A stretch of DNA of 64,000 nt from Betaproteobacteria bacterium (GCA_016192825.1 JACPTK010000091.1:8382-72381), one strand, 5' to 3'. Counted from the first letter of the stretch, positions 417 to 58,053 are shown. Program-made: numbers and translations. The notes: generated by a model from the letters alone, not told the origin.

Positions 417-517
417 CAGGACTGGGAATCGAGGATTGAGGATCCAGGATTGAGGATTGAGCAAAAACCTCGGGGGCGGCGATTTCCCTCAATCCTGATA
501 GCACAATCCCCAGTCCT
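417..517. repeat. Inverted pair of heptamer tracts (GAGGATT-type 417-461 / AATCC-type 488-517)
   Basis: caggact gggaatc gaggatt gaggatc caggatt gaggatt; a degenerate reverse complement abuts the LOG stop. Confidence 0.8.
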
Positions 518-1244
518 ATAAATTGAGGAGTATTTCACGCTCCGCGTCCGACGGCTCGAAACCGCGCTTTTCGTAATAGCCGAAGATGGCGTCCACCACC
601 GCCTGCGGGTCGTCGTGGATCTGGACGAGATCGATGTCGCCGGCGTCGATCATGCCCTCCGCGACCAGCGTGCGGCGGAACCAGTCGAGCAGGCCGCGCC
701 AGTACGCCCCGTGCACCAGGATGATCGGCACCCTTCGCGTCTTGCCGGTCTGCACCAGCGTGAGCGCCTCCATCAGCTCGTCGAGCGTGCCGAAACCGCC
801 GGGCAGCACCACCCAGGCGGTCGCGAACTTCACGAACATCACCTTGCGCGCGAAGAAGTGGCGGAAGGTCTGGCTGATGTCCTGGTAGGCGTTCGACTGC
901 TGCTCGTGCGGCAGCTGGATGTTGAGCCCGACGCTCGGGCTGCGCCCGAAATAGGCGCCCTTGTTCGCCGCCTCCATGATGCCGGGGCCGCCGCCTGATA
1001 TCACGCTGAAACCGGCGTCGGAGAGAAGGCGGGCGGTCTTCTCGGCGAGGAGGTAGTAGGGATGATCGGGCCGCAGGCGGGAGCTGCCGAAGAAGCTCAC
1101 CGCCGGGCGGATCGCGCTCAGGCGTTCCGTGGCCTCGACGAATTCTGACATAATGCCGAACACCCGCCAGGACTCGCGCGCCGACCATCTTTTTTCCGCG
1201 AGCTCGGGCGAGATCGCGTTGGCAAGCTTGTTTCTTTCGGTCAT
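516..1244 (-). CDS. LOG-family (TIGR00730-like) nucleotide phosphoribohydrolase
   Basis: SGGGPGIMEAANKGA, FFARKVMF and PGGFGTLDE motifs. Confidence 0.9.
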   Translation of the reverse strand: MTERNKLANAISPELAEKRWSARESWRVFGIMSEFVEATERLSAIRPAVSFFGSSRLRPDHPYYLLAEKTARLLSDAGFSVISGGGPGIMEAANKGAYFGRSPSVGLNIQLPHEQQSNAYQDISQTFRHFFARKVMFVKFATAWVVLPGGFGTLDELMEALTLVQTGKTRRVPIILVHGAYWRGLLDWFRRTLVAEGMIDAGDIDLVQIHDDPQAVVDAIFGYYEKRGFEPSDAEREILLNL

Positions 1245-1253
1245 GGAAACTCC

Positions 1254-1320
1254 GTGAATCGTGAATCGATCTGACGCGGTTCGCGGAGTCGTCGAATCAC
1301 GAATCACGACTCACGAATCG
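1254..1320. repeat. Heptamer tracts GTGAATC x2 and GAATCAC/GACTCAC x4 in the divergent LOG/polA intergenic region
   Basis: Read directly at 1254-1267 and 1293-1320. Confidence 0.85.
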
Positions 1321-1321
1321 C

Positions 1322-4087: not shown

Positions 4088-4091
4088 AGGC

Positions 4092-4121
4092 CGTGATTCG
4101 TGAGTCGTGATTCGTGAATCG
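4092..4121. repeat. Heptamer tract CGTGATT/CGTGAGT x4 after the polA stop
   Basis: cgtgatt cgtgagt cgtgatt cgtgaat cg. Confidence 0.85.
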
Positions 4122-4227
4122 AAAAACGCTCGATTTTCTCTGCGTCCTGCGGTAGCAAAGTAGGCGCGACCATCGGCTACGCGGGTAGAATTCAGATACG
4201 TTTGTTGCTTCCGCTCAACGGCTTCCG

Positions 4228-7728: not shown

Positions 7729-7751
7729 ACGTCTTCTTGCGCTTCTTTGAT

Positions 7752-8465: not shown

Positions 8466-8645
8466 ATAGACGTTCCTTTATCAAATCAAGTGCCTCACTC
8501 AGGGTGCTGTCAAGGCCAAAGCGCGCGATGGCTCATATTGTCTCATGACAATAGGACATTTGTCCAACCCGTGGGAGAATCACAAATTGCCTGACCGAGA
8601 TACAGATTCAGTTGGCCGCGACACGAGGATCTGTCAAAACAGAAC

Positions 8646-8741
8646 CGCGAGCTGCCGAAGCTCATGAGCGGCGTGGCTGAGCCTTCAGTGCCGCTGGTGG
8701 TGGACGTCGGTGCCGGGCCGAACCGGGACCAGGCACACTAA
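8646..8741 (+). repeat. Degenerate copy of the last 32 codons of polA
   Basis: Translates RELPKLMSGVAEPSVPLVVDVGAGPNRDQAH* versus RELPRLMSGVAKLSVPLVVDVGAGPNWDKAH* in PolA. Confidence 0.92.
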
Positions 8742-11651: not shown

Positions 11652-11656
11652 GGCCT

Positions 11657-14263: not shown

Positions 14264-14287
14264 CACGAGTCACGAGCCGCGAGTCAC
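14264..14287. repeat. Heptamer tract CACGAGT x3 just after the ybeD stop
   Basis: cacgagt cacgagc cgcgagt cac. Confidence 0.7.
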
Positions 14288-20591: not shown

Positions 20592-20942
20592 ATGGCGAAT
20601 CCGACAACTCAACAAATCGCGGAACTGCTGATCGGCATCGCGCGCGCGCAGCAGGCGGTGATCGACGCCATCGAGAGCCAGAAAGCGGGCTACAAGCAGA
20701 CGCACCTGGGGCCGGTCCTGACGACGGCGGCGAAGATCCGCAACACCGGGCACGCGCCGACGCTGATGGACTTCCCCTCGCGGGTGCTGCTCGCGCACCA
20801 GGGGCGCAATCCACCCGATCTGGCGCAGATCGTGCGGGACCTCGAGGCGCTGTTGAGCGGGCAGACCGCCGCGCCCGCCGCCGCACCCGGGGCGGCCGCG
20901 CCCGGGCCCGCGGCGGACGCGTCCTCGCTCGACATGACTTAG
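20592..20942 (+). CDS. Hypothetical protein
   Basis: GAGGTG RBS, coding-like codon bias, Ala/Pro-rich tail. Confidence 0.7.
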   Translation: MANPTTQQIAELLIGIARAQQAVIDAIESQKAGYKQTHLGPVLTTAAKIRNTGHAPTLMDFPSRVLLAHQGRNPPDLAQIVRDLEALLSGQTAAPAAAPGAAAPGPAADASSLDMT

Positions 20943-20947
20943 CTACA

Positions 20948-21055
20948 GTGCTGAGTGCATGGTGCTGAGTGCTGAGTAACAAACGCGCCCGCTGCGCGGG
21001 GTGGTTTGCGTTCCGAGCCCAGCACTCAGTCCTCAGTCCTCAGCACTCGGAACTC
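20948..21055. repeat. Inverted heptamer tracts GTGCTGA x4 / TCAGCAC-TCAGTCC x5
   Basis: 20948-20975 and 21019-21053; the right arm contains the moeB stop. Confidence 0.85.
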
Positions 21056-23493: not shown

Positions 23494-23512
23494 TGCGCGC
23501 TCCTGAAGAACC

Positions 23513-23603
23513 GTGAGTCGTGAGTGGTGAGTAGTGAATGGAGAAACCGCCCGCTCCAGCTCCAAGCGGTTGTTACCACTCACCAATCACTACTCACATT
23601 CAC
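23513..23603. repeat. Inverted heptamer tracts GTGAGTN x4 / NACTCAC x4 between envC and ctpA
   Basis: 23513-23540 and 23577-23603. Confidence 0.85.
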
Positions 23604-24787
23604 CGTATGTTGACCCAGTCCAGGGGATCCAGCGGCCGGCCCTGGTACCGGAGTTCGAAGTATAAACCCGAATCGGCATTGCCGCCGCTCGCGCCGACCG
23701 CGCCGATCGGCTCGCCGCCGCGGATCGGCTCGCCGACCCGCTTGTAGAGCGCCTCGTTGTTGCCGTAGAGGCTCATGTAGGCGTCGCCGTGATCGACGAT
23801 CATCAGGTTGCCGAAGCCGCGCAGCCAGTCGGCGAATACCACCCGCCCGTCGCCCACCGCCCGGACCTCCTCGCCGGCCCGGGCGAGGATGAACCACCCC
23901 TTCCAGAGCGCCCCGCCGTCCGAACGTGGACTGCCGAAGCGGTTCGCAAGTTCCCCGCGGACCGGCAGGCGCATCCTGCCCTTCAGGCTCAGGAAGGGGG
24001 ATTCCTCGCCGGCGCCCTGCGGAACGCGCTCGCTCCCCGGCCGCGGCGCGGGCCGCGCGCGCGCGACCAGCTTCGACAGGCTCTCGACGAGCCGGGCAAG
24101 CCGGCTCTCGTTGCGCTTCAGCGTGCCGATTTCGCGCCGCTGGCGCTGGACGTCGAGTGAAATCCGGGCGAGCATCTCGCCGCGCGCGCGCTTGTCGCGC
24201 TCGAGGCGCGCGCGCAGCGCCTGGCTTGCGGCGGTAACGGCGGCGAGCTCCGCCGCCTCCCGCGCCGTTTCCTGGGAGAGCTGGCGCACCCGCGCGAGGC
24301 CGCCGCGCGTCTCCGCGATCAGCCGCGCCCGCGCGCGGGAGAGGTAGCCGAAATAATGCAGGCGGCGCGCGATCTCATGGGGATCCTCGCGGTTGAGCAG
24401 AAGCTTCAGCGGCTCGGAACGGCCGCCGAGGTAATGCTGGTGGAGCATGCGCGCGAGCAGCGACTGCTGCGCTTTCAGCGAGGCTTCGTTCCGGAGCGAC
24501 TCGGCGTGGAGTTCCGCGAGCCGCCGGTTGATCTCGCGGGACCGGGCCCCGAGCTCGCGCAGCTCGCGGTTCGCCTCCGAGATCGCGCGCTCCGATTCCC
24601 TCAGCGCGTCGGCTGCCTCGCTCTTCGATTCTTCCGCATCCGCAAGCCGCTTTTGCAGCGCCTCGATGCGGCCGCGCAGTTCGCGCAGCTCCTTTTCCTT
24701 CGGGCCGGCCCCCGCGGGCTCCGCGTCCGGGCCCGCCAGCAGCAGGAGGAGAAGGAGGGCGGCGGCCGCGAGGCGTTTGTCGGACAC
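23600..24787 (-). CDS. envC: Murein hydrolase activator EnvC (coiled coil + M23-like domain)
   Basis: Long coiled coil, ADWLRGFGNLMIVDHG, LYFELR; gpmI-envC-ctpA order; GTG start inferred. Confidence 0.88.
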   Translation of the reverse strand: MSDKRLAAAALLLLLLLAGPDAEPAGAGPKEKELRELRGRIEALQKRLADAEESKSEAADALRESERAISEANRELRELGARSREINRRLAELHAESLRNEASLKAQQSLLARMLHQHYLGGRSEPLKLLLNREDPHEIARRLHYFGYLSRARARLIAETRGGLARVRQLSQETAREAAELAAVTAASQALRARLERDKRARGEMLARISLDVQRQRREIGTLKRNESRLARLVESLSKLVARARPAPRPGSERVPQGAGEESPFLSLKGRMRLPVRGELANRFGSPRSDGGALWKGWFILARAGEEVRAVGDGRVVFADWLRGFGNLMIVDHGDAYMSLYGNNEALYKRVGEPIRGGEPIGAVGASGGNADSGLYFELRYQGRPLDPLDWVNIR

Positions 24788-31940: not shown

Positions 31941-32145
31941 CAGCCTGTCGGACTTGAAGCTCCGACAGGCTGCTAAATGCAAAACCGCCCGCTGACTTAC
32001 GACAGATTGGAGTGAAAAGCGTGTTTTTGCCACCGGGAAGTGCAGGAACAGCGGCGAATTCAAGTATTTCGAATCCAAAGCCGTCGTTTTCCTGCGGGCG
32101 GTTTTGCGTAAGGAGTGTGTCGGGGCAAAGCCCGACACACTCCTA
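31938..32145. mobile_element. Composite MITE/BIME-like unit: palindrome - GCAAAACCGCCC ... GGGCGGTTTTGC - palindrome
   Basis: Palindromes at 31938-31975 and 32109-32145 enclose a 14-bp inverted repeat (31979-31992 / 32094-32107). Confidence 0.65.
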
Positions 32146-32151
32146 GCGCCG

Positions 32152-32179
32152 GTGACTGGTGACTCGTGACTCGTGACTC
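32152..32179. repeat. Heptamer tract GTGACTC x4 before gpsA
   Basis: gtgactg gtgactc gtgactc gtgactc. Confidence 0.85.
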
Positions 32180-32194
32180 GGGGCCCGAGGCTAG

Positions 32195-33181
32195 ATGAAG
32201 ATCGCGGTACTCGGCGCGGGCGCTTGGGGCACGTCGATCAGCATCAACCTGTGCGCGCGCCATCAGGTGCGGCTCTGGGCACGCGACGCGGCGCTGATCG
32301 AGGGGTTGCGCGCGCATCGGGCCAACGAGCGGTATCTCCCCGGCTTCAAGCTCCCGGACGCGCTTGCGCTCGACGAGGACCTCGGGACGGCGCTCGGGGG
32401 CGCTGAGCTGGTGCTCATCGCCGTCGTCACCAATGGCCTGCGCGACGTGCTGCAGCGCATCCGCGCGGCGGGGCCCGGCGCGCCTCTCGTCTGGTTGTGC
32501 AAGGGTTTCGAGAGCGGGCAGGCCAAGCTGCCGCACCAGATCTGCCTGGAGGAACTGGCTTCCGGCCCGCCGCGCGCGGTCCTGTCCGGGCCGAGCTTTG
32601 CGGAGGAGGTGGCGCGCGGGCTTCCCGCCGCGCTTGCCCTGGCTTCGACTGATCCCGCGTTCGCGCGCGACGCGGCACGCGCCCTGCACGGCGCCGCGCT
32701 GCGAATCTATCCGAGCGAGGACGTCGTCGGCGTGGAGGCGGCGGGCGCGGTGAAAAACGTCATGGCGATCGCGGCTGGCGTGAGCGACGGGCTGGAGCTG
32801 GGACTCTCCGCGCGCGCCGCGCTGATCACGCGCGGGCTCGCCGAGATGACGCGGCTCGGCGTGGCGCTCGGCGGGCGGGCGGAAACGTTCATGGGGCTCG
32901 CCGGCGCCGGCGATCTGATCCTCACCTGCACCGGCGATCTTTCCCGCAACCGCAGGGTGGGCCTCGCGCTTGGCCGTGGCCTGCCGCTCGCCGACGTGCT
33001 GGCCCGCCTCGGGCATACGGCGGAAGGCGTGCTGACCGCGCGCGCGGTGGCGGGTCTCGCCGGGAGGCTCGGGGTCGAGATGCCGATCACGCGGGCGGTG
33101 TGCCGCGTCCTGGACGACGTCCGCCAGGCACGCGCAGCGGTGCAGGAATTGCTCGCCCGCGAGCAAACGACCGAGTACTGA
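32195..33181 (+). CDS. gpsA: NAD(P)H-dependent glycerol-3-phosphate dehydrogenase
   Basis: GAGAWG, SGPSFA, KNVMAI, GDLILTC, SRN. Confidence 0.96.
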   Translation: MKIAVLGAGAWGTSISINLCARHQVRLWARDAALIEGLRAHRANERYLPGFKLPDALALDEDLGTALGGAELVLIAVVTNGLRDVLQRIRAAGPGAPLVWLCKGFESGQAKLPHQICLEELASGPPRAVLSGPSFAEEVARGLPAALALASTDPAFARDAARALHGAALRIYPSEDVVGVEAAGAVKNVMAIAAGVSDGLELGLSARAALITRGLAEMTRLGVALGGRAETFMGLAGAGDLILTCTGDLSRNRRVGLALGRGLPLADVLARLGHTAEGVLTARAVAGLAGRLGVEMPITRAVCRVLDDVRQARAAVQELLAREQTTEY

Positions 33182-33268
33182 GTACCGAGTGCTGAGTTCT
33201 GAGTGCCAGGTTGCTTGGTTCCCGTATGTAACTCAGCACTCAGCACTTAGCACTGGGCACTCGGCACT
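33171..33268. repeat. Inverted heptamer tracts CTGAGTN x5-6 / ACTCAGC x5 between convergent gpsA and trmL
   Basis: 33171-33212 and 33231-33268; the left arm contains the gpsA stop. Confidence 0.88.
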
Positions 33269-33842: not shown

Positions 33843-35549
33843 ATGGGCCGGCCTGAAAAAGTCCGCCTCGGCGAGATACTCATCCAGCAGAAACTGCTGA
33901 CCGAGGAGCAGCTCAGGAGCGCTCTCGAGGAGCAGAAGAAGTCGGGCCGCCGCCTGGGCCGCGTGGTCATCGACAAGGGCTACGTCCCCGAGGAACAGAT
34001 CTCCCGGGCGCTCGCCCGCCAGCTCAACATCCCGTTCATCAGCCTCAAGCAATACAACACCAGGCGCGAGGTCGCCCTCAAGTTGCCGGAAACGCAGGCG
34101 CGCCGCTTCCGCGCGCTGGTGCTGGAGGATACCGGCCGGACCTGCCGGGTCGGCATGGCCGATCCGACCGATCTCCTGGCTTACGACGAGGTCGCGCGCG
34201 CCCTCAAGCGCGACATCGAGCTTGCGGTAGTCACGGAATCCGAGCTGCTGAGCACCATCGACCGCATCTACCGCCGCACCGAGCAGATCAGCGGGCTTGC
34301 CCAGGAGCTCGAAGCGGAGGTGGGAGAAGCCGCCGTGGTCGACTTTGGCGCACTGGCGCTGACGCCGGGCCTCGAGGAAGCCCCGGTGGTGAAACTGCTG
34401 CAGACGGTGTTCGAGGACGCGATACAGGCGCGCGCTTCCGACATCCACGTCGAGCCGCAGGAGAAGCGTCTCCACATCCGATTCCGCATCGACGGCGTGC
34501 TGCACCTGCAGACCGAGGCGGACGCCAAGATCGCCTCCGCCGTGGTGCTGCGGTTGAAGCTGATGTCGGGGCTCGACATTTCCGAGAAGCGGCTGCCGCA
34601 GGACGGGCGCTTCAACATCAAGGTGCGGAATACCCAAGTCGACGTGCGGATCTCGACCATGCCGGTCCAGTACGGCGAATCGGTGGTCATGCGGCTGCTT
34701 CACCAGGCGAGCGGAATGCTGGGACTCGACCGGATCGGGATGCCGGCCGGCATGCTCGCGAGACTGCGCGAGGTCATCCACCGTCCCAGCGGCATGGTGC
34801 TGGTGACCGGGCCCACCGGCAGCGGCAAGACGACAACGCTCTATGCGGCGCTCGGCGAGCTGAACACCTATGAGCGCAAGATCATCACCGTGGAAGACCC
34901 GGTGGAATACCGCCTGCCCGGAATCAACCAGGTGCAGGTCAACGAGAAGATCGAGCTCACCTTTGCCCGCGTGCTGCGCTCCGCCTTGCGCCAGGATCCC
35001 GACGTGATCCTGGTAGGCGAGATGCGCGACCCGGAGACGGTCGAGACCGGCTTGCGCGCGGCGATGACCGGCCACATGGTGTTCTCCACGCTGCACACGA
35101 ACGACGCGGTTTCCACGCCGGTGCGGCTGCTCGACATGGGCGCGCCGCGCTATATGGTAGCGCTGTCCCTGCATATGGTGATCGCGCAGCGGCTGCTGCG
35201 CGTCATCTGCGAGAGTTGCGCCACCGAACACTCGCTCTTGCCCAATGAGCGCGAATGGCTGCGCCTGGAGCTGGGAGACGGGGTGGACGGGCACCGCTAC
35301 AAGCGCGGCAAAGGGTGCACGCACTGCAATGCCACCGGCTACATGGGCCGCACCGGCATCTACGAGGTGCTGGAGATGACCGCCCCCGTGGTCGAGGCGG
35401 CGAACCAGGCGGATGTCCGGGAGTTCATGCGCGTTGCGCGCGGGCAAATCGGCGAAAACACGCTGCGGCGCCACGCCGCACAGCTGGTCGCGGCCGGCAC
35501 GACGTCGGTTGAGGAGGCGATGCGCATCTGCAATCAGTTTGAAGATTAG
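33843..35549 (+). CDS. mshE: MSHA extension ATPase with MshEN c-di-GMP-binding domain
   Basis: Tandem RLGEIL/RLGRVV MshEN motifs, GPTGSGKT, LRQDPD, tetracysteine motif. Confidence 0.93.
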   Translation: MGRPEKVRLGEILIQQKLLTEEQLRSALEEQKKSGRRLGRVVIDKGYVPEEQISRALARQLNIPFISLKQYNTRREVALKLPETQARRFRALVLEDTGRTCRVGMADPTDLLAYDEVARALKRDIELAVVTESELLSTIDRIYRRTEQISGLAQELEAEVGEAAVVDFGALALTPGLEEAPVVKLLQTVFEDAIQARASDIHVEPQEKRLHIRFRIDGVLHLQTEADAKIASAVVLRLKLMSGLDISEKRLPQDGRFNIKVRNTQVDVRISTMPVQYGESVVMRLLHQASGMLGLDRIGMPAGMLARLREVIHRPSGMVLVTGPTGSGKTTTLYAALGELNTYERKIITVEDPVEYRLPGINQVQVNEKIELTFARVLRSALRQDPDVILVGEMRDPETVETGLRAAMTGHMVFSTLHTNDAVSTPVRLLDMGAPRYMVALSLHMVIAQRLLRVICESCATEHSLLPNEREWLRLELGDGVDGHRYKRGKGCTHCNATGYMGRTGIYEVLEMTAPVVEAANQADVREFMRVARGQIGENTLRRHAAQLVAAGTTSVEEAMRICNQFED

Positions 35550-35582
35550 TTTCGAGTTGCGAGTTTCCAGTTTCGAGTCGCC
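35548..35582. repeat. Left heptamer arm AGTTTCG-type x5
   Basis: agtttcg agttgcg agtttcc agtttcg agtcgcc; begins inside the mshE stop codon. Confidence 0.85.
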
Positions 35583-35585: not shown

Positions 35586-35974
35586 ATGGCCACAATCAAG
35601 CAGGTAGAAGAAATTCAGGCTTGGCAGAAGGCCAGGGTACTCTGTAAGCGTGTTTACTCGGTAACGAACGATGGTCGGTTTGCGAAAGATTTTGGGTTGC
35701 GCGACCAGATCCGGCGGGCAGCCGTTCGATTTTGTCCAATATTGCAGAGGGCTTCGAGAGAGGAGGCAGCAGAGAGTTTGTCCAATTTCTGGCGATTGCC
35801 AAGGGGTCCGCGGGCGAAGTTCGAGCCCAGCTCTACGTCGCGCTCGATCAGGTTTACGTGGGCCAACAAGAGTTCGATGAGTTGATCCGGGAAGTCGACG
35901 AAATCTCAAAGATGATCAATGGCCTAATTTCGTATCTCCGCGGCTCCGCCATAAAAGGTTCGCGGTTCAAGTGA
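35586..35974 (+). pseudogene. Four-helix-bundle protein (23S rRNA IVP / bAvd-like), split by a 1-nt deletion near 35726
   Basis: AWQKA...[13 protein letters not shown] in one frame and SNIAEGFER...[21 protein letters not shown] in the next. Adding one T (gtt tcg) gives a continuous 129-aa ORF. Confidence 0.88.
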
Positions 35975-35987: not shown

Positions 35988-36021
35988 CCAACTCGAAACT
36001 CGAAACTCGAAACTGGAAACT
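35988..36021. repeat. Right heptamer arm CGAAACT-type x4-5
   Basis: ccaact cgaaact cgaaact cgaaact ggaaact; complementary to the left arm and immediately before the mshG RBS/start. Confidence 0.88.
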
Positions 36022-37260: not shown

Positions 37261-37850
<590 letters not shown>

Positions 37851-38492: not shown

Positions 38493-38975
38493 ATGATGGC
38501 GCAACAAAAGGGCTTTACGCTGGTGGAGCTGATCGTGGTGATCGTGATCCTCGGCATCCTGGCGGCGACTGCGCTGCCGCGGTTCATCAATGTCACTGGT
38601 GATGCACGGTTTGCTTCGGTGCAGGGCATGGCCGGGGCATTGCGCTCGGCAGTCTCTGTGGTCCAGTCGAAGTGGATGGTTGCAGGATCAACCGCGGACA
38701 GCACCGTTGACATGGCCGACGGTCAAACGGTCACCGTGGGCACCGGCGCTGATGCGGATGGAGGCGTTCCGATTGCGGCTAGCGGCGACGCAACCGGAAT
38801 CACTCGGGCATTGCGGTGTGAATCCGATACGGCGTGTCAAGGATTTACTGTCAGCTACCCGGTCGCCGCGACGGCGAGGTTCATCCCGAGCGGCGGCACC
38901 GCGACTTGCATGGTCGAGTACGATTCAACTACCGGAGCCGTGACGGTGACAGCAAGCGCCGCGAACTGCAACTGA
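38493..38975 (+). CDS. mshA: MSHA major pilin
   Basis: QKG|FTLVELIVVIVILGILAATALPRF; strong AGGAGG RBS; followed by a hairpin. Confidence 0.85.
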   Translation: MMAQQKGFTLVELIVVIVILGILAATALPRFINVTGDARFASVQGMAGALRSAVSVVQSKWMVAGSTADSTVDMADGQTVTVGTGADADGGVPIAASGDATGITRALRCESDTACQGFTVSYPVAATARFIPSGGTATCMVEYDSTTGAVTVTASAANCN

Positions 38976-39018
38976 CGCTCATAACATTGGCCGAGCCATC
39001 CGGCCCAATCGTTTGGCG

Positions 39019-39050
39019 CAAGGGGGGTGCGTGTAAGCGCACCCCCTTTG
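39019..39050 (+). terminator. Hairpin after the major pilin
   Basis: caaggggggtgcg-tgtaag-cgcaccccctttg. Confidence 0.65.
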
Positions 39051-39094
39051 CCTTTCCGGCGCCGAATCACTCAATGACTCGCTACGCTGCATTG

Positions 39095-39574
39095 ATGAAA
39101 TCGCACAAACCGCCTACCGGTTTTACCATTACTGAACTGGTCGTCACCATCCTTATCGCAGGCCTGTTGGCTGCGGTCGCCATCCCGCGTTTCGTCGGTA
39201 AGGACGCGTTTGAATCGCGCGGCTTCCATGATGAATCGCTGGGCGTGGTGCGCTTCGCGCAGAAGACGGCCATTGCGTGGCGGCGGCAGATCTTTGTATG
39301 CGTGACAACGATCCGGGTCGCAGCGGCGGCCGCGTCAGGCTGCGCTATACCGATTACCCATCCCGCGACACGGGGTCCCCTGGCAGCAAATGCACCCGGC
39401 GGCGTAACGCTGCCTGTTCCGGTCGAATTCCGATTCGACGGCGCTGGGCGCCCGCTCGACGGTATAAGCGGGAATCCAAGCGGGCAGATCACCATCCCCA
39501 TCTCGAGCACGATTGCAGACGATCCAGCCCGACAGATCGTGGTCGAGGCGGAAACGGGATATGTCCATCCATAA
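39095..39574 (+). CDS. mshC: MSHA minor pilin
   Basis: G|FTITEL, VRFAQKTAIA, FDGAGRP, VEAETGYVH. Confidence 0.85.
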   Translation: MKSHKPPTGFTITELVVTILIAGLLAAVAIPRFVGKDAFESRGFHDESLGVVRFAQKTAIAWRRQIFVCVTTIRVAAAAASGCAIPITHPATRGPLAANAPGGVTLPVPVEFRFDGAGRPLDGISGNPSGQITIPISSTIADDPARQIVVEAETGYVHP

Positions 39575-40274
39575 CTTCGGTCACGAGTCACGAGTCACGA
39601 GTCACGAGTCCCCAATAGCGAGTCGCGCGACGCAGCTGTCCATTCGGGCATTAACGAACCATTTGCCTACGGACTTCGACCGGGGACCCGGGACCCGGGA
39701 CCCGGGAGTGCGACAGCTTGGTCTGTCGCTGGTCGAGCAGATCGTTTTCATTGTCGTGGTCGGTGTCGCGGTGGCGGGGGTCCTTGCTGTCGTGAACGTC
39801 GCCACGCACGGCAGCGCGGATCCCATGATCCAGAAGCAGGCGGTGGCGATCGCAGAGGCACTGATAGAAGAAGTTCAGTTGCAGCCATTTACGTACTGCG
39901 ATCCCGATGATGCCAATGCTGCGACGGCGTTGAGCGCAGCGGACTGTACCGGAGGCGTCGGCGGCGCGAATGACGAGAACAAGCTGCCGCTGGGATCCGA
40001 GGCCGGTGAGACCCGGACCAGCGCGGCAACCCCGTTCGACAACGTCAGCGACTACAACAACTTCGGCATGGGGCCGGGATTCACTGACATTAACGGCAAT
40101 GCGATCTCCGGGCTCGACGCCTACTCGGCTACGGTGAGCATCACGAATCAGGCGCTCGGGACGATTCCATCGAGCGACGCGCTCCTGATCACCGTGTCGG
40201 TGACGGGCCCGGCGAACACGAGCGTCACGCTTCACGGCTACCGTGTGCGCTATGCGCCGAATGCGCTGCCATAA
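39561..40274 (+). CDS. mshD: MSHA minor pilin with a repeat-expanded leader
   Basis: G|LSLVE, SADPM, FDNVSDY, LHGYR; leader holds GTCACGA x4 (39580-39610) and GGGACCC x3 (39683-39703). Confidence 0.85.
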   Translation: MSIHNFGHESRVTSHESPIASRATQLSIRALTNHLPTDFDRGPGTRDPGVRQLGLSLVEQIVFIVVVGVAVAGVLAVVNVATHGSADPMIQKQAVAIAEALIEEVQLQPFTYCDPDDANAATALSAADCTGGVGGANDENKLPLGSEAGETRTSAATPFDNVSDYNNFGMGPGFTDINGNAISGLDAYSATVSITNQALGTIPSSDALLITVSVTGPANTSVTLHGYRVRYAPNALP

Positions 40275-41151
40275 ACGGAATTCAGTAATGCGACGGGAAT
40301 CGAGTCACGAGTCACGAGTCACGAGTCACCGCGCTCCTCGAGCGCGCGGGGTGACGCTGGTCGAGATGATCGTGGTGATCGCGATCACCGGCATCGTCGC
40401 GGCGGCAATCGCCATATTCGTCCGTAGTCCCGTAGAGGGTTACGTGGACGCCGCGCGGCGCGCGGAGCTGACCGACATCGCCGACACGGCGCTGCGCCGC
40501 ATTACCCGCGACCTGCGTACCGCGCTGCCGAACAGCATCCGCACCACCACTTCCGGCAACGTTCGCTACATCGAGTATCTCCAGACCAAGGGCGGTGGAC
40601 GCTATCGCGCGGACAAGGATTCGGGCGGGGCAGGATTCCCTCTCGACGTCACGGCGGCGATCTCCGATTTCGACGTCATCGGCACGATGCCGGCGCTCGC
40701 GAGCGGCGATTCGATCGTCATATACAACCTCACCGCCGACTCCGCCGTGCCCACCGGCAATGCCTATGCCGGCGACAATCGCGAGGCGTACTCCAGCAAT
40801 ACCGCGACGACCATCACGCTCGGCGCGGCCAAGCAATTTCCGTTCGCTTCGCCGGGCAAGCGTTTCCAGGTCGTGCAGTATCCCGTGACGTATTCATGCG
40901 ATCCCCTTCCGCTGGGAACGGGACAGTTGCGCCGCTATTGGGGCTATTCAATTGCAGCCGTCCAGCCCACGCCGCCCGCCGGGGGCAGCAACGCGCTGCT
41001 CGCGACCAACGTGTCCGATTGCAGCTTCTCCTACGACCCGGCCACCGGCGCGTCCGGGCGAACGGGCGTGGTGGCGCTGATCCTGCAGATCGAGCAAAGC
41101 GGCGAGAAGGTGCGGCTTTTCCAGCAGGTGCACGTCAGCAATGTTCCCTGA
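40261..41151 (+). CDS. mshO: MSHA minor pilin
   Basis: RG|VTLVEM, RDLRTALPNSIR, GGRYR, QVHVSNVP; leader holds CGAGTCA x4 (40301-40328). Confidence 0.88.
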   Translation: MRCHKRNSVMRRESSHESRVTSHRAPRARGVTLVEMIVVIAITGIVAAAIAIFVRSPVEGYVDAARRAELTDIADTALRRITRDLRTALPNSIRTTTSGNVRYIEYLQTKGGGRYRADKDSGGAGFPLDVTAAISDFDVIGTMPALASGDSIVIYNLTADSAVPTGNAYAGDNREAYSSNTATTITLGAAKQFPFASPGKRFQVVQYPVTYSCDPLPLGTGQLRRYWGYSIAAVQPTPPAGGSNALLATNVSDCSFSYDPATGASGRTGVVALILQIEQSGEKVRLFQQVHVSNVP

Positions 41152-41707
41152 CACGAGCCACGAGCCACGAGCCACGAGCCACGAGCCGCCACGCGCGCGC
41201 CGGCGCGCGGCAGGCGGCTTCAGCATCGTCACCGCCATCTTCCTCATCGTGGTGCTGGCCGCGCTGGGCGCGTTCATCGTCTCGGTGAGCGGGCTTCAGC
41301 AGTCGAGCAGCCAGCTCGATGTCCAGGGCGTACGCGCCTACCAGGCGGCGCGGGCGGGAATCGAATGGGCGGCGTATCAAGTGCTCGATCCCAACAACAA
41401 CCAGCCCGGTATTGGGGGAACGGACAATCTTCCGGCGTGTCCAGCGCCGACGACCACTCTTCCCAGCCTGGCCGGTTCGCTGTCGGTATTCACCGTAACG
41501 GTAACCTGCAGCGACAACGTAGGCGCCGGCGTCACGGAAGGAAACCGCAAGATCGCGACCTACGAAGTCGTGTCCACCGCCTGCAACCAATCACCATGCC
41601 CCAATCCCTCGCCCGGGACGGGTTATGTGGAACGCCGGTTGACCGCCGTTTTGAGCAAGTGCAAGGATCCGACCGCGGCGGCCCCGCGGTTCGCGTGCGG
41701 AGGATGA
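41141..41707 (+). CDS. mshP: MSHA minor pilin
   Basis: GG|FSIVTAIFLIVVLAALG, RAYQAARAGIEW, YVER; leader holds CACGAGC x5 (41152-41186). Confidence 0.88.
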   Translation: MFPDTSHEPRATSHEPPRARRRAAGGFSIVTAIFLIVVLAALGAFIVSVSGLQQSSSQLDVQGVRAYQAARAGIEWAAYQVLDPNNNQPGIGGTDNLPACPAPTTTLPSLAGSLSVFTVTVTCSDNVGAGVTEGNRKIATYEVVSTACNQSPCPNPSPGTGYVERRLTAVLSKCKDPTAAAPRFACGG

Positions 41708-46757: not shown

Positions 46758-46870
46758 TCGCCCGGACCCGGGATACGGGATTCGAGATTCGGGTTGCGGG
46801 TCGTCCGTTATGCCGGCGCCGACGCGAAGATGTCTGTCCGACCGCCGGAGTTTCGGAGGCGCCGGCATGA
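46754..46870 (+). other. 38-codon spacer ORF carrying a CGGGATT-type heptamer tract, with ATGA overlaps at both ends
   Basis: MIARTRDTGFEIRVAGR...SEAPA*; junction sequence ggaggc-NN-cggcatga at 46742-46757 and 46855-46870. Confidence 0.6.
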
Positions 46871-48209: not shown

Positions 48210-48646
48210 GCCAGTCACGAGTCACGAGTCACGAGTCACGCGCCGCCGCACTGGCGCTCATGCTCTTTTGCGCGAGTGCCGCGGCGCAAGTGACGACCGA
48301 TCCCACCCGCCCGCCCGAGGGCATGGGCGCGACCGGCATGGAGGCGGCGGGAGACGCCGGTGGCGGCATGCTGCTGCAGTCCGTGATGATTTCGCCGACG
48401 CACAAGGCCGCGATCATCAACGGCGTGATGGTGCGGCTCGGGGACAAGTTCGGCGGCGCCGTGCTGGTCAAGGTGGCGGAGAGCGAGGTGGTGCTCAAGA
48501 GCGACGGCACGAGCCAGGTGCTCAAGCTGCATCCGGGCGTGGACAAGCGCGAGGTCGTCCCGGCTGCTGCAAAGAGCGCGCCCCGCCAGGGAAAAGCACG
48601 GAGCGGCAAGGACGCCGCGGCGGCCGGCGGCACGCCGGCGCGGTAG
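48206..48646 (+). CDS. mshK: MSHA biogenesis protein with a heptamer-encoded N-terminus
   Basis: DPTRPP, LQSVMIS, AIING; AGTCACG x4 at 48213-48240. Confidence 0.85.
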   Translation: MSQSRVTSHESRAAALALMLFCASAAAQVTTDPTRPPEGMGATGMEAAGDAGGGMLLQSVMISPTHKAAIINGVMVRLGDKFGGAVLVKVAESEVVLKSDGTSQVLKLHPGVDKREVVPAAAKSAPRQGKARSGKDAAAAGGTPAR

Positions 48647-48659
48647 AGGAGAGGCGGAC

Positions 48660-50408: not shown

Positions 50409-50426
50409 CCCGACGGGATTGACGCC

Positions 50427-52462: not shown

Positions 52463-52477
52463 CAGCGGTCGCGAATC

Positions 52478-52498
52478 CAGTCACGAGTCACCAGTCAC
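52478..52498. repeat. Heptamer tract SAGTCAC x3 after the comF stop
   Basis: cagtcac gagtcac cagtcac. Confidence 0.75.
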
Positions 52499-52501
52499 GC
52501 T

Positions 52502-53209
52502 TCATCGAGGAAGCGTGCGCGCGACGACCCAGCCGCGAACTTCCGCGGCGCCCGCCCTGCGCAGGACGCGCGCGAGTTCATTGAGGGTCGCGCCGGTGGT
52601 GAGCACATCGTCCACGACGGCGACCCGCATGCCGTTTAGATCCGCGTCGCATGCGAAGGCCCGGCGCACGTTCCTCGCGCGCTCCTTCCACGGCAGCGTC
52701 GCCTGCGGCGGCGTGTCGGCTACCTTGCGGCACGCATCGGGGAGCAACCTGACGCTGGTTCCGGCCGCCGCCACCCGCGCGATCTCGAGCGCCTGGTTGA
52801 ACCCGCGCTCGGCGAGCCGCCCGTGCGCCAGCGGCATCGGCACGATCGCATCCACGTCGCGACCGACGGCCCGCGCCACCAGCCCGCCCAGCACGCGCGC
52901 CAGCGCCAGCCGGCCGCCGTACTTGAAGGCGTGGATCAGCGCGTCCACCGGGTAGCGGTAGGCGAACAGCGCCTCCACGCGGTCGAAACGCGGCGGCCGG
53001 TCGAGACAGGCGCCGCATATCGATCCGCTCGGGAGCGGCAGAGCGCACACCGCGCAGCGGTCGCGCGGCAGCCACGGCAGATCTTCCAGGCACGGCGAGC
53101 ATAACGGCGCGCCGGCGCTGTCGGCCCCGCACAGATGACACGATTGCGGCAGCAGGGCGCGCGCAAAATCCAGGCAGCCGTTTAGTAATCCGGGCAGGAA
53201 ATTTGACAA
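52502..53209 (-). CDS. comF: ComF family (zinc finger + phosphoribosyltransferase)
   Basis: Four CxxC pairs, [17 protein letters not shown]; TTG start inferred. Confidence 0.9.
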
Positions 53210-53279
53210 CCGGCGGGGCCGGCCCGAAGATACAAGCGCTTTAAAACGCGGGTTTTTCGCAGATTCCATCGGGAGCCCC

Positions 53280-54275
53280 ATGGAGACTTCTAGCCTTAAC
53301 GAACGGCCAACGGCCGCCGCTGACACCACGCCTGCGGCCGAGCCCTGGAGCGCGGACGCGGTCGAGGCGCTGTTCGCGCTGCCGTTCAACGATCTCATGC
53401 ACCGAGCGCATGGCGTGCACCGGCGCCATTTCGATCCCAACGCGGTGCAGTTGTCCACGCTGCTGTCGGTGAAGACCGGCGGCTGCCCGGAGGACTGCGG
53501 CTACTGCCCGCAGGCGGCGCGCTATCACACCGGCGTCGCGGACGAGGCGCTGCTGTCGGTCGAGCAGGTCACGGCCGCGGCGCGGCTCGCGAAGCAGAAC
53601 GGCGCGACCCGGTTTTGCATGGGGGCGGCGTGGCGCGGCCCGAAGCAGCGCGAGCTCGACCGGGTCATCGAGATGGTGAAGGCGGTGCGCGCCGAAGGGC
53701 TCGAGAGCTGCGCCACGCTCGGGCTGCTCAAGGCGGGGCAGGCCGAGCAGCTCAAGGCGGCCGGGCTCGATTACTACAACCACAACATCGACGCATCGCC
53801 CGAGTTCTACGGCGAGATCATCACCACGCGCACGCAGGACGACCGGCTGGAGACGCTCGAGCGGGTGCGTCGCGCCGGCATCCACGTCTGCTGCGGCGGC
53901 ATCGTCGGCATGGGCGAATCGCGCCGCGCGCGGGCGGCGCTTATCGCGCAGCTCGCCGGCATGGACCCGTATCCCGAGTCCGTCCCGATCAACAACCTGG
54001 TGCAGGTTCCCGGCACGCCGCTGCACGGGACCGCGGCGCTCGATTCCCTCGAATTCGTACGCACGGTCGCCTGCGCGCGCATCACGATGCCGAAAGCCAT
54101 GGTGCGGCTCTCCGCCGGCCGGGAGGCCATGTCCGAAGCGGTCCAGGCGCTGTGTTTCTTCGCCGGTGCCAACTCGATCTTCTACGGCGAGAAGCTGCTC
54201 ACCACCGGCAATCCCGACGTGGAAGCGGATCGAGCCCTGTTCGCTAAGCTTGGGCTCCATCCGCTTTGGTGCTGA
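53280..54275 (+). CDS. bioB: Biotin synthase
   Basis: [25 protein letters not shown]. Confidence 0.96.
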
Positions 54276-54445
54276 GTTTTGAGTGTTGAGTTTTGAATTG
54301 GTGCTGAATGGCTGATATCGCTGACATCGACGTTCATGAGGAGCTTGAAGATGCGGAGGAACTGATCCGGATTCTTACCGCAATCGTCAAGACTACTGGA
54401 CGTTCGAAGTGACAAACTCAACACTCAAAACTCAACACTCAAAAC
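54269..54445 (+). mobile_element. Heptamer-flanked remnant element: (GTKTTGA)n - 34-aa mini-ORF (54308-54412) - (TCAAMAC)n
   Basis: 54276-54296 is the exact reverse complement of 54425-54445; mini-ORF is MADIADIDVHEELEDAEELIRILTAIVKTTGRSK*. Confidence 0.75.
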
Positions 54446-55668
54446 GCCCGCACACGCCCGCGACGGCCCTGCGCGACGAGCTCGCGGTACTCGATCGGCA
54501 GGGGCTGAAACGCGCGCGCCGCGTCCTGGAAACGCCACAGGGTGCGCGGGTCAGGGTCGACGGCCGCGAATACGTCGCGTTCTGCAGCAACGACTACCTC
54601 GGCCTCGCCGCGCATCCGGAGCTGATCGAGGCCGCGCGGGCGGGCGCGGCGAGCTTCGGCGTCGGCGCCGGCGCCTCCCATCTGATCCTGGGACACGCGA
54701 CGGCGCATCACGCGCTGGAAGTGGCGCTGGCGTCGTTCGTCGGACGGCCGCGAGCGCTGCTGTTTTCCACCGGCTACATGGCCAACATCGCCATCGTGAC
54801 GGCGCTGGTGGGACGGGAAGACGCGGTTTTCGCCGACCGGCTGAACCACGCCTCGCTGAACGACGCGGTGCTGCTCTCGCGCGCCAAATTCCGGCGCTAT
54901 GCGCACCTCGATCTTGCCGCGCTCGATCGGCTGCTCGCCGCGTCCCGCGCGCGCCGCAAGCTCGTCGTCACCGACGCGGTGTTCAGCATGGACGGCGACC
55001 TCGCGCCGTTGCCCGACCTGATTGCCTTGTGCGAGCGTCACGACGCCTGGCTGCTGGCCGACGATGCGCACGGGTTCGGCGTATTGGGACCGGAAGGGGA
55101 GGGGGCGCTCGCGCATTTCGGGGTCTCATCCCCGCGCGTGATCGCGATGGCGACGCTCGGCAAGGCGGCGGGCGTTTTCGGCGCATTCGTGGCGGGCGAG
55201 GCCGAGCTGATCGAGACGCTCATCCAGCGTGCGCGGCCCTATATCTATACGACCGCCGCGCCACCGATGCTATCGGTGGCGCTCATGAAAAGTCTCGAGC
55301 TCATACGCGGCGGCAAATCGCGGCGGCAACACCTGCAAGCCCTGGTTGCGCGGCTGCGGCAGCGTCTGAGCCCCGGGCGTTGGAAGCTCATGCCTTCGCA
55401 GACGGCGATACAGCCCCTGGTGATCGGCGGCAACGAGGAGGCGGTCGCGCTGTCCGGGGATCTCGCCCGCGACGGCCTGCTGGTGCCGGCCATCCGGCCG
55501 CCCACCGTGCCGCAAGGAACAGCGCGCTTGAGGATCTCGCTGTCCGCATCCCACACTTTCGACGATATTGAACGGTTGGCCGGCTGCCTTAACGAGATCG
55601 AGCGCGCTGTTCCTTATTCCGAACCCCATCCGGGTCCAGGGAACCATGCCGATGTCCCCGGCCGGTAA
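54409..55668 (+). CDS. bioF: 8-amino-7-oxononanoate synthase
   Basis: FCSNDYLG, GAGASHL, DRLNHAS, DDAH, TLGKA, AIRPPTVP. Confidence 0.95.
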   Translation: MTNSTLKTQHSKRPHTPATALRDELAVLDRQGLKRARRVLETPQGARVRVDGREYVAFCSNDYLGLAAHPELIEAARAGAASFGVGAGASHLILGHATAHHALEVALASFVGRPRALLFSTGYMANIAIVTALVGREDAVFADRLNHASLNDAVLLSRAKFRRYAHLDLAALDRLLAASRARRKLVVTDAVFSMDGDLAPLPDLIALCERHDAWLLADDAHGFGVLGPEGEGALAHFGVSSPRVIAMATLGKAAGVFGAFVAGEAELIETLIQRARPYIYTTAAPPMLSVALMKSLELIRGGKSRRQHLQALVARLRQRLSPGRWKLMPSQTAIQPLVIGGNEEAVALSGDLARDGLLVPAIRPPTVPQGTARLRISLSASHTFDDIERLAGCLNEIERAVPYSEPHPGPGNHADVPGR

Positions 55669-55693
55669 CGCGGTACCCGGAAAACCAGGGACG

Positions 55694-56437
55694 ATGCAGA
55701 AAAACGACGTCAGAGACGTCGTTTTTCTGCACGGGTGGGGCAGCGGTGCCGGGATCTGGGACGATCTGGCGCGGCGGCTGGCGCCGCGATTCCGCGTTCG
55801 CGCCCTGCCGCTGCCCGGATACGGAGCGGACACGGCAAGCGGGACGCACTCGCTGCAGGCCATCGTTGCCGCGATCGCGCGCGCCGCGCCGCGCCGGTGC
55901 GGCGTCGTCGGCTGGTCGCTTGGCGGCGAAGTTGCGCTCGCCTGGGCGCGGCGCGCGGGACACCAGGTGCAGCGTCTGGCCCTCATCGCGACCACCCCGT
56001 GCTTTACGAGCAGGCCCGGTTGGCGATGCGCGACGGCGCCCGCGGTGCTGCGTGAAATCGGGCGCTCGCTCGCGGCCGACCGCGCCGGCACGCTGGCGCG
56101 TTTCGCCGCGGTGCAGGCAAGGGGCGATGCGCACGCGAGACAGGTTGCCCGCCTCCTGAAGCAGTCGAGCGAGCGCAGCGCGCCCGGCGAGGTGCTCAAG
56201 GCGGGCCTCGCTGTTCTGTCGAACACCGATCTGCGGCGGGAGTTGCCGAGGGTGCAACAGCCGGCAGTGGTATTGCACGGCGCGCGCGATTGCGTCGTGC
56301 CCCCCGCGGCGGGACGCCGGCTTGCCGCGGCACTGCCCAATGCGCGCTTTGCGCTGCTGCGGGACTGCGCGCACGCGCCGTTCCTGTCGCAGCCCGAACG
56401 GGTGGCGCGGACGTTGCGGGAATTCTTCGATGAGTGA
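55694..56437 (+). CDS. bioH: Pimeloyl-ACP methyl ester esterase
   Basis: LHGWG, GWSLGG, HAPF. Confidence 0.9.
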   Translation: MQKNDVRDVVFLHGWGSGAGIWDDLARRLAPRFRVRALPLPGYGADTASGTHSLQAIVAAIARAAPRRCGVVGWSLGGEVALAWARRAGHQVQRLALIATTPCFTSRPGWRCATAPAVLREIGRSLAADRAGTLARFAAVQARGDAHARQVARLLKQSSERSAPGEVLKAGLAVLSNTDLRRELPRVQQPAVVLHGARDCVVPPAAGRRLAAALPNARFALLRDCAHAPFLSQPERVARTLREFFDE

Positions 56438-57311
56438 CGCGCTCGCGCTGGACAAGCGGCAGGTGCGGCGATCGTTCGAGCGGGCGGCCGCGACCTATGA
56501 CGCGGCGGCGGTCCTGCAGAACGAGGTCTGCGCACGCATGCTGGCGCGCCTGGACTACATCAGGATCGAGCCGGCGACGGTCCTCGACGCCGGCAGCGGC
56601 ACCGGCAACGCGATTGCCGGCCTGCTCGCCCGCTACCCGCGCGCGCGCGTGATCGCGCTCGATCTCGCGCTGGGCATGGCGCGGCGCGCGCGCGCGCGGC
56701 GTCCGCGGTGGCGAAGCTGGCTCGACCGGGGCGGGCCGAGGCTCGCCGCCGTCTGCGGGGACATCGAACAGCTGCCGCTGGCGCCCGGTTGCGCCGGCCT
56801 CGCGTGGTCCAACCTGGCGATCCAGTGGATCAACGAGCCACAGCGGGCGTTTGCGGAGATGCACCGCGTGCTGGCTCCCGGCGGCCTGCTGCTGTTCAGC
56901 AGCTTCGGACCCGACACGCTGAAGGAGCTGCGGGCGGCGTTCCAGGGCGTGGATCGCCACAGCCACGTGCACCGATTCCTCGACATGCACGACGTGGGTG
57001 ACCGGCTGGTCGCCTGCGGCTTCGCCGATCCGGTGATGGACATGGAGACCGTGACGCTCACCTACGTCGACGTGCGCGGGCTGATGCGCGACCTGAAGGC
57101 GATCGGCGCGCGCAACCTGACGCGCGGGCGCCCCGCCGTCCTGGGCGGCAAATCGCTGCTCGCGACGGTGTCGCGCAACTACGAAGCGTTCCGCCGTGGC
57201 GGGAAACTCCCCGCCACCTTCGAGGTGGTCTACGGCCACGCCTGGAAGCCCGCGCCGCGAACCGGCCCGACGGGGCACCCGGTCATCGACATCAAGCCGC
57301 GCAGCCGGTGA
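56430..57311 (+). CDS. bioC: Malonyl-ACP O-methyltransferase
   Basis: FERAAATYD, LDAGSGTG, FGPDTLKEL, DMHDVGD. Confidence 0.92.
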   Translation: MSDALALDKRQVRRSFERAAATYDAAAVLQNEVCARMLARLDYIRIEPATVLDAGSGTGNAIAGLLARYPRARVIALDLALGMARRARARRPRWRSWLDRGGPRLAAVCGDIEQLPLAPGCAGLAWSNLAIQWINEPQRAFAEMHRVLAPGGLLLFSSFGPDTLKELRAAFQGVDRHSHVHRFLDMHDVGDRLVACGFADPVMDMETVTLTYVDVRGLMRDLKAIGARNLTRGRPAVLGGKSLLATVSRNYEAFRRGGKLPATFEVVYGHAWKPAPRTGPTGHPVIDIKPRSR

Positions 57312-57321
57312 GGGTGTTTTT

Positions 57322-58053
57322 GTGACCCGTCACGAGTCACGAGTCACGAGTCACGGGTATTTCGTGACCGGCACGGACACCGGCGTCGGCAAGACCCTCG
57401 TCGCCTGCGCCCTGCTGCGGGCGTTCGCGGCGCGCGGCCTGACGGCGGCCGGCATGAAGCCGGTCGCAAGCGGCGCCGAGCCCCGCGGGAACGAGCTCGT
57501 GAACGACGATGTCGAGCGCCTGATCGCGGCCGGCAACGTGGCCGCCCCGCGCGAGCACGTCAACCCCTACTGCTTCGCGCCGCCGATCGCGCCGCACATT
57601 GCCGCGCGGCAGGCGGGCGTGACGATCTCGCTCGATCGCATCGAGCAAAGTTTCCGCGCGCTGGCCGCCCGCTCGCAGGCGGTCGTCGTGGAGGGCGTGG
57701 GCGGATTTCGCGTGCCGCTCGGCGCGGATACCGACACCGCGCAGCTGGCCGCGCGGATCGCGCTGCCCGTGGTGATGGTGGTCGGCATGCGGCTTGGTTG
57801 CCTGAACCATGCCCTGTTGACTGCCGCGGCGATTGCCGACCGCGGCCTCACGCTTGCCGGCTGGGTCGCCAATCACATCGACCCGCAGATGGCCGCGGCG
57901 CGCGAAAACGTGCGGGCCCTCGAGGCGCTCGTCGGCGCGCCGCTGTTGGCCCGGATCGCGTTCGCCGAGAACCCGGAACCCGCGGCAATCGCGGCCGCGC
58001 TGGCAGCCGCAATCCACGGTGGCGCGCGCGCCGCAACTCGTTGCGAATGCTGA
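57322..58053 (+). CDS. bioD: Dethiobiotin synthase with a heptamer-encoded N-terminus
   Basis: FVTGTDTGVGKT, KPVASG, EGVGG, LGCLNHA; GTCACGA x4 at 57329-57356. Confidence 0.93.
   Translation: MTRHESRVTSHGYFVTGTDTGVGKTLVACALLRAFAARGLTAAGMKPVASGAEPRGNELVNDDVERLIAAGNVAAPREHVNPYCFAPPIAPHIAARQAGVTISLDRIEQSFRALAARSQAVVVEGVGGFRVPLGADTDTAQLAARIALPVVMVVGMRLGCLNHALLTAAAIADRGLTLAGWVANHIDPQMAAARENVRALEALVGAPLLARIAFAENPEPAAIAAALAAAIHGGARAATRCEC

Follow-up and report, generated by a model that had tools for sequence, protein, structure and literature searches.

The stretch of DNA analysed here, a window of 64,000 nucleotides (nt) from a Betaproteobacteria bacterium (GCA_016192825.1 JACPTK010000091.1:8382-72381), carries short tandem arrays of heptamers at the junctions between its genes. 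Pfam matches back the names of those genes, including DUF2782, LOG, polA, DUF493/ybeD, ThiF/moeB, S41/ctpA, M23/envC, gpsA, SpoU/trmL, mshE, T2SSF/mshG, a comF-like gene, bioB, bioF and bioD. Some of the arrays stand alone and others face each other as the arms of inverted pairs, and the arms of one such pair, between mshE and mshG, enclose a frameshifted gene for a four-helix-bundle protein (Table 1). That bacterial genomes hold too many tandem heptamers has long been noted without explanation. According to the original prediction, made from the sequence of the window, the strand of these arrays that contains stop codons follows genes, and its stop-free complement leads into genes. Tandem Repeats Finder (TRF), a finder written for this analysis and the printed junctions all place the window tracts where that prediction had put them. 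Its observation is confirmed, and its interpretation, that the arrangement might let an insertion land at a junction without harm to either neighbour or might reflect later selection, is partly supported.

The source genome is a 5.1 Mb draft of 123 contigs with a G+C content of 65%. Genome-wide, TRF reported 1513 rows with a period of 7, compared to 353 for period 6 and 437 for period 8. With a minimum of 3 units per tract, the period-7 finder built for this work returned 786 tracts, against 196 for period 6, 87 for period 8, 166 for period 5, 55 for period 9, and 7 for period 10. The period-7 tracts range from 3 to 26 units in length and use 140 canonical units, though about half of the tracts are built from just ten of them. 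Genes were called with a purpose-made codon log-odds scorer (4377 genes, 82% of the genome covered), and 735 of the 786 tracts fall outside the called genes, making them mostly intergenic; by these crude calls a tract is present in about 560 of 4254 intergenic regions. Stop codons in all three frames of one strand, together with none on the other, occur in 484 of the 786 tracts; a further 157 are stop-free throughout, and in 7 each strand has three-frame stops. The 51 tracts that lie inside called open reading frames (ORFs) include 29 without stops on either strand.

A genome-wide tally of orientation with a binomial test, put forward together with the original prediction, did not fall near 50:50. 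Judged by the nearer gene, 355 of the 454 stop-oriented intergenic tracts obey the rule, with the stop-bearing strand being the plus strand beside the gene to the left and the minus strand beside the gene to the right. Among tracts no further than 40 nt from a stop, the stop-bearing and the coding strand coincide in 191 and differ in 46; among those no further than 40 nt from a start, it is the stop-free strand that coincides with the coding strand in 129 and differs from it in 45. The rule is obeyed by paired tracts (177/214, p = 4e-23) and by solo tracts (178/240, p = 4e-14), whether the neighbouring genes are co-directional on the plus strand (paired, 76/90; solo, 56/78), co-directional on the minus strand (paired, 72/86; solo, 71/93), convergent (paired, 19/22; solo, 33/40), or divergent (paired, 10/16; solo, 18/29). 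Solo tracts between co-directional genes are oriented nearly evenly with respect to the coding strand (93 to 78). Between co-directional genes, tracts with the stop-bearing strand in sense lie a median of 5 nt past the stop, and those with the stop-free strand in sense a median of 18.5 nt before the start.

The same orientation can be read from base composition. Of 484 tracts oriented by stops, 458 show an excess of G over C, and 475 an excess of G+T over A+C (keto), in the same orientation; keto, purine, and T-A skews were tried as orienters, and the T-A skew was no predictor of tract position. For the 709 skew-oriented tracts, the median distance to the gene end is 9 nt (stop) or 25 nt (start) for the 5′ end and 68 nt (stop) or 92 nt (start) for the 3′ end. 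In 133 tracts a complementary partner is found on the 3′ side of the stop-bearing (G-rich) strand, against 12 tracts with the partner on the 5′ side, a count that is independent of gene calls. Neighbouring tracts in plus-minus order are separated by a median gap of 49 nt, compared to 922 nt, approximately one gene length, for those in minus-plus order. A full-length partner with at least 70% complementarity accompanies 124 G-rich arms, with a median loop of 38 nt.

The strand rule is thus best read as a structural polarity of the repeat arms rather than as a relation to the coding strands, a reading to which a probability of roughly 0.65 is assigned. In every tract the G-rich (G/T-rich) strand tends to have its 5′ end at the nearest gene end and to point into the gap with its 3′ end, and two arms facing each other constitute an inverted pair with the G-rich arm first and the C-rich arm second, on both strands. 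This inward polarity is independent of gene strand, of stops and of G-runs. As a consequence of it, a gene that ends at an arm has the G-rich strand as its coding strand and a gene that starts there has the C-rich strand, and because most of the G-rich units here contain TGA, the polarity resembles a rule about stops. Since the two strands of a pair read alike, turning the pair round has no effect. The source of the polarity would be the process by which the arms are made or moved. The positional rule itself is already published for Xanthomonas and Nostoc (PMC4692102); what changes is that the strand rule becomes a gene-independent polarity, and what is gained is that the repeats are tied, across phyla, to one family of insertable cassettes with an Avd-like four-helix-bundle gene.

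The evidence for that tie begins with the seven loci of the source genome at which PF05635 has matches (n = 8). Three intact proteins are members of TIGR02436 (115–132 bits, cut-off 24), and heptamer arms adjoin all seven loci. At six of the seven, the left arm is G-rich and the right arm C-rich on the plus strand, whichever strand holds the gene (minus at three loci, plus at four); the seventh, on contig C60, is complex and has a unit with an AGCT core. Among 80 homologous loci from many phyla, a period-7 tract lies within 250 nt of the gene in 52 and none does in 28, with upstream arms being G-rich in 29 of 31 cases and downstream arms C-rich in 41 of 43. Further, 568 of the 786 tracts are within one mismatch of a cassette-arm unit, compared to 264 on average and 477 at most when units were permuted (200 trials). 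Full-text searching of the literature gave no paper linking four-helix-bundle genes to heptamer arms. The arms are parts of insertable elements, the full-length members of which contain the small TIGR02436/PF05635 gene, with gene-less pairs as putative non-autonomous relatives of the cassettes and solo arms as what may remain after the loss of one arm. Because about 60% of the tracts are partnerless, the view of solo arms as half elements is conjectural, and because no spacer matches the four-helix-bundle profile, so is the descent of gene-less pairs from cassettes.

Relatives of the source genome (16 genomes of the same genus, with 70–85% identity over the window region) show that the elements are insertions in tight operon junctions that leave the neighbouring stop and start intact. 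The junction of mshE and mshG measures 2–65 nt and is free of tracts in 9 of the 16 relatives. An armed four-helix-bundle cassette with related units occupies it in the source genome (G000), G022, G024, and G042, while the cassette in G020 uses another unit family and odd remnants are found in G003, G007, and G019. Other junctions are empty in some relatives and hold different unit families in others, as at the site equivalent to the solo tract at 40301–40329, where G003 has a different unit, and native stops and starts are retained at the occupied junctions. The suggestion that an insertion could land between genes without harming either of them therefore stands. In G022 and G024 (loci L097 and L098), about 25 nt of the start of mshG occur twice, with a second C-rich arm between the two copies, in what looks like a local duplication made when the arm was added.

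Several results weigh against this reading. Exceptions to the rule make up 99 of 454 tracts, about 60% of the oriented tracts are without a recognisable partner, and two families of palindromic, AGCT-core units run counter to the rule, with 9 to 13 in one family and 1 to 8 in the other. The gene caller is crude, with exact stop positions and approximate start positions. With respect to the cassettes, the units used for the similarity count were picked by eye. A search of the six-frame genome with a profile of 83 four-helix-bundle proteins recovered only the seven known loci and no remnants in spacers, and among gene-less pairs the spacers resemble one another only in leftover repeats. No target-site duplication was found, direct matches between the outer flanks having a mean of 3.84 compared to 3.92 after shuffling. 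The relatives G003 and G005, in which no four-helix-bundle gene was detected, still hold a few tracts in the 3–18 kb sampled per genome. Lastly, TGA remains enriched when it is counted over 120 distinct units (42 against 17.5 expected, 2.4-fold) and in 49 cassettes of other genomes (21 against 9.6 expected, 2.2-fold), which leaves room for some design-level role or benefit of the stops, though not one that sets the orientation. Apart from these points, one of the two AGCT-core families corresponds to the most rule-abiding family with two letters swapped.

Two published sets of heptamer repeats bear on the role of stop codons. Rehm et al. (2015; PMC4692102) described G-rich heptamers in Xanthomonas campestris, X. 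axonopodis, and Nostoc PCC 7120, in which the G-rich strand lies within 50 bp past a stop (sense) or within 50 bp upstream of an ORF (antisense), at 28 nt from the 5′ neighbour compared to 160 nt from the 3′ neighbour for any ORF orientation. The available parts of that paper also report 70–75 convergent pairs in two Xanthomonas genomes and no preference for the coding strand between aligned ORFs. The repeats were taken as quadruplex-forming and a link to mobile elements was not found; four-helix-bundle genes are not mentioned in those parts, although for Nostoc sp. PCC 7120 one such gene is annotated in a table of PMC8491059. The tracts studied here share with the Rehm repeats the period of 7, the mostly intergenic position, the polarity that is near at the 5′ end and far at the 3′ end, and the convergent pairs. 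They differ in having at least 120 distinct units, a TGA core and mostly no G-runs, whereas the Rehm repeats, as described in the same parts, have one unit per genome, G-runs and no stops. The second set (MacGregor 2015; PMC4679880) comprises direct repeats of TAACTGA in marine Beggiatoaceae, cyanobacteria, and Bacteroidetes, with three-frame stops on the forward strand and none on the reverse, by which their placement is limited. Their stop-bearing strand mostly leads into starts, and the largest class ends 1 nt 5′ of the start. They share with the present tracts the intergenic heptamer arrays and the three-frame stops on one strand; they differ in that, in the portions of the paper at hand, just one inverted pair is reported and no polarity toward the nearer gene is described (PMC4679880).

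An explanation through the stop codons themselves, under which an arm terminates the gene upstream and allows the one downstream to begin, with the orientation set by design or by selection after insertion, is improbable. On the G-rich strand no trinucleotide is indeed more enriched than TGA (416 of 667 units, where permutation of the unit letters predicts 137.7), the C-rich strand has few stops (18 against about 97 expected), and of the 383 arms next to a stop codon, 92 overlap it. Three genes of the window, moeB, gpsA, and bioB, take their stop from the arm, each from a TGA inside the tract as the original prediction had it. It was also correct that three TGA-containing units put a stop in every frame, since 7 cannot be divided by 3. 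However, stop-free intergenic tracts oriented by G-C skew follow the same rule equally well (95/124, p = 2e-9), contrary to the proposal that stops set the orientation or that selection acted against each neighbour. Stop content is also equal at the two kinds of gene end, with three-frame stops in 201 of 285 arms abutting a stop (71%) and in 138 of 188 abutting a start in antisense (73%; Fisher p = 0.53), and the same equality is seen in solo tracts alone. The rule is unchanged across all four arrangements of neighbouring genes, and a symmetric pair offers no flip on which selection could act.

The relatives and the published repeats also speak against the stops as cause. In 165 kb from the 16 relatives, 17 of 59 oriented tracts are without three-frame stops on the G-rich strand and yet have a stop on the C-rich strand, and 29 of 59 fit neither stop condition, with the pair order still 10 to 2; a family with GTTCAAG in the left arm provides an example in which the stops are on the other arm. 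The Xanthomonas unit, as given in the available parts of PMC4692102, is free of stops on both strands and still follows the same positional rule, and the TAACTGA repeats, as far as PMC4679880 was available, run mostly opposite to a stop rule. Since neither stops nor G-runs are needed for the rule to hold, explanations from stops and from quadruplexes both fall as general causes. TGA looks like part of a preferred GTGA/GTGG-like core, a feature of the unit family rather than the setter of orientation; GTG and GAT are likewise enriched on the G-rich strand, and many of the stop-free units listed for loci elsewhere carry GTGG.

It is also unlikely, to a slightly greater degree, that the pairs work as RNA hairpins (terminators, RNase III sites or stabilisers) and that the polarity serves that structure. 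The 124 arms with full-length partners and short loops would suit such a function, a T run follows the gpsA pair (seen once), and the layout is like that of the stems of 23S rRNA intervening sequences, which are cleaved by RNase III. The majority of tracts are solo, though, and yet follow the same rule. Mismatches between arms show no bias toward G-U pairs in the sense transcript (100 sense compared to 163 antisense), a weak test as the mismatches are not independent. Because it is irrelevant to the stability of a hairpin which of the arms is G-rich, a hairpin function leaves the polarity unexplained.

As for the process behind the inward polarity, there is an outside chance that the arms, instead of travelling with a transposing element, are added to DNA 3′ ends at intergenic breaks by template-driven, telomerase-like repeat synthesis, in which a reverse transcriptase might be helped by the Avd-like four-helix-bundle protein. 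If so, addition at ends would account for the 5′ to 3′ run of the G-rich strand away from the flanking gene, for the abutment on gene ends and for the unique filler loops, and also for the lack of target-site duplication and for solo arms that obey the rule. The source genome has 3–4 reverse-transcriptase genes (contigs C78, C84, C93, and C115), none of which stands beside a four-helix-bundle locus. On a par with this is a variant in which the arrays may be polar, Chi-like signals that face breaks in the gap.

Very improbable is the idea, proposed for the Xanthomonas and Nostoc repeats, of regulatory G-quadruplexes whose G-rich strand acts on the neighbouring gene. The units described in the available parts of PMC4692102 form quadruplexes in vitro and follow the same positional rule, but in the present genome GGG or CCC occurs in the units of only 153 of the 786 tracts, four GGG/CCC runs are found in only 79, unlike the quadruplex-forming Rehm type, and tracts without G-runs obey the rule (416/553). 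Chance or a gene-calling artefact, for which a crude gene caller and ORFs that run upstream through stop-free arms might be invoked, can be dismissed in view of the 4- to 9-fold excess of period 7 over periods 6 and 8, a pair order (133 to 12) that needs no gene calls, the exact stop positions and binomial p values of 1e-14 or smaller.

The elements resemble other known systems in part. The 23S rRNA intervening sequences with a PF05635 ORF (Pfam text, PMC10053308, as available) likewise have inverted flanks that can pair and leave the host transcript intact; unlike them, all copies examined here lie between protein-coding genes, are flanked by heptamer arrays and are mostly without an ORF. Repetitive extragenic palindromes and bacterial interspersed mosaic elements (REP/BIME) and miniature transposable elements with inverted repeats (MITEs) are also abundant intergenic inverted repeats near gene ends. 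The arms differ from REP/BIME, where an imperfect palindrome of about 20–40 nt is conserved, in forming tandem arrays of at least 120 unit types with, by inspection, no conserved core, and from MITEs in the absence of target-site duplications and in having unrelated spacers. No transposase is tied to the arms here, and no search aimed at transposases or at REP-associated tyrosine transposases (RAYT) was made. Phase-variable simple sequence repeats are similar in their short tandem units and a period that is not a multiple of three, whereas the present tracts are intergenic, past stops or before ribosome-binding regions, and the window showed no connection with surface or contingency genes.

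Table 1. Heptamer tracts and the cassette gene in the window. Positions (nt) are counted from the first nucleotide of the window; for arms and tracts, the strand is the one that carries the G-richness.
Position	Strand	Feature	Placement and remarks
413–461	+	G-rich left arm of a pair	Between DUF2782 start and LOG stop; from TRF and printed junctions
487–520	-	Right arm of the 413–461 pair, C-rich on +	Overlaps LOG stop at 516–518
1253–1268	+	G-rich left arm of a pair	9 nt from LOG start; flanking genes divergent
1293–1316	-	C-rich arm	14 nt upstream of polA start
4092–4117	+	Solo G-rich arm bearing TGA	4 nt past polA stop
14264–14287	-	C-rich on +; G-rich arm on minus strand	Just past ybeD (DUF493) stop
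20943–20977	+	G-rich arm	Immediately 3′ of the stop of ORF 20592–20942
21020–21047	-	C-rich on +	Minus strand contains moeB/ThiF stop (SEC-stop)
23512–23537	+	G-rich arm	18 nt from start of minus-strand ctpA
23575–23604	-	C-rich arm	Overlaps stop of minus-strand envC
32151–32180	+	Solo G-rich, TGA-bearing arm	Exception; 14 nt 5′ of gpsA start
33173–33204	+	G-rich arm	Contains gpsA stop (TEY-stop)
33231–33268	-	C-rich partner of the gpsA arm	13 nt from stop of minus-strand trmL
35548–35574	+	G-rich left cassette arm	Begins within mshE TAG stop; no run of stops
35586–35974	+	Frameshifted four-helix-bundle gene (PF05635/TIGR02436)	Cassette cargo; two matches in different frames
35990–36021	-	C-rich right cassette arm	6 nt 5′ of mshG start
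37262–37279	+	G-rich arm	4 nt past mshG stop
37311–37355	-	C-rich arm	Called start 37308 upstream of arm; true start probably just downstream
39580–39610	-	C-rich tract	5 nt past stop of ORF 38834–39574; 97 nt before next start
39678–39707		Tract with G = C, not orientable	Adjoins start 39708
40301–40329	-	Solo C-rich tract	26 nt past stop; 21 nt before next start
41152–41187	-	C-rich tract	Directly past stop at 41151; called start of next gene (41141) upstream
46769–46791	+	G-rich stop-free tract	11 nt past stop of PilM-like gene (mshI)
48213–48240	-	Solo tract, TGA on complement only	3 nt past stop; 19 nt before start
52479–52499	-	C-rich on +; TGA-bearing arm on minus strand	2 nt past comF-like stop
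54273–54296	+	G-rich arm	First TGA is the bioB stop (LWC-stop)
54416–54442	-	C-rich partner arm	Before bioF; 119-nt spacer without four-helix-bundle profile match
57329–57355	-	Solo C-rich tract	17 nt past bioC-like stop; 8 nt before bioD start

Within the window, about 21 of the 26 classifiable tracts obey the rule on a reading of the printed junctions. The TGA-bearing strand lies past or over the stops of LOG, polA, ybeD, the ORF beginning at 20592, moeB, envC, gpsA, trmL, mshG, and comF, as had been claimed. For mshE and mshI the claim holds in that the G-rich strand lies past the stop, but these arms have no run of stops, and the TAG of mshE forms the first letters of its arm. The tract before gpsA, named beforehand as the one clear exception, proved to be one, and it lies 210 nt away from the gene on its 5′ side. 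Three C-rich tracts (39580–39610, 41152–41187, and 48213–48240), each 0–5 nt past a stop, are ambiguous or contrary; if the ORF at 38834–39574 is real, the first of them breaks the rule.

The complementary strand was said to precede or to enter the starts of genes. It does precede starts, but the cases of entry (37308, 41141, and probably 54409) look like over-extended ORFs. Relatives align to the protein called from 37308 only from residue 3–19 (15–19 in 7 of 11), and to the one called from 41141 only from residue 1–26 (14–26 in 8 of 10). The starts called beside stop-free C-rich arms at 37308, 41141, and 54409 are thus probably too far upstream. As stop-free arms let ORFs run upstream, start codons beside arms should be checked.

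At the end of gpsA, the first unit of the arm (33173–33181) is the native gene end, consisting of the last two codons and the stop, and is kept in relatives that have no arm, as would be expected if the arm docked by microhomology or if the unit was seeded locally. An origin of units from the native stop heptamer fits this gene end, and was rejected as a general cause because the units recur at dozens of loci and TGA is equally common at starts. In G042, the arm rewrites the last two codons of gpsA. The 254-nt gap before gpsA contains, at 32000–32150, further inverted repeats that are not heptameric, compared to a gap of only 3–10 nt in relatives, and is a lineage-specific insert of another kind. 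The spacer between bioB and bioF was considered as a gene remnant, a candidate rejected for want of a match to the 83-protein profile. A large screen for association with CRISPR lists, in the part of the paper available, a ‘23S rRNA IVP’ domain among array-linked proteins (PMC10910872), and it may be speculated that heptamer arms beside four-helix-bundle genes were scored there as CRISPR arrays.

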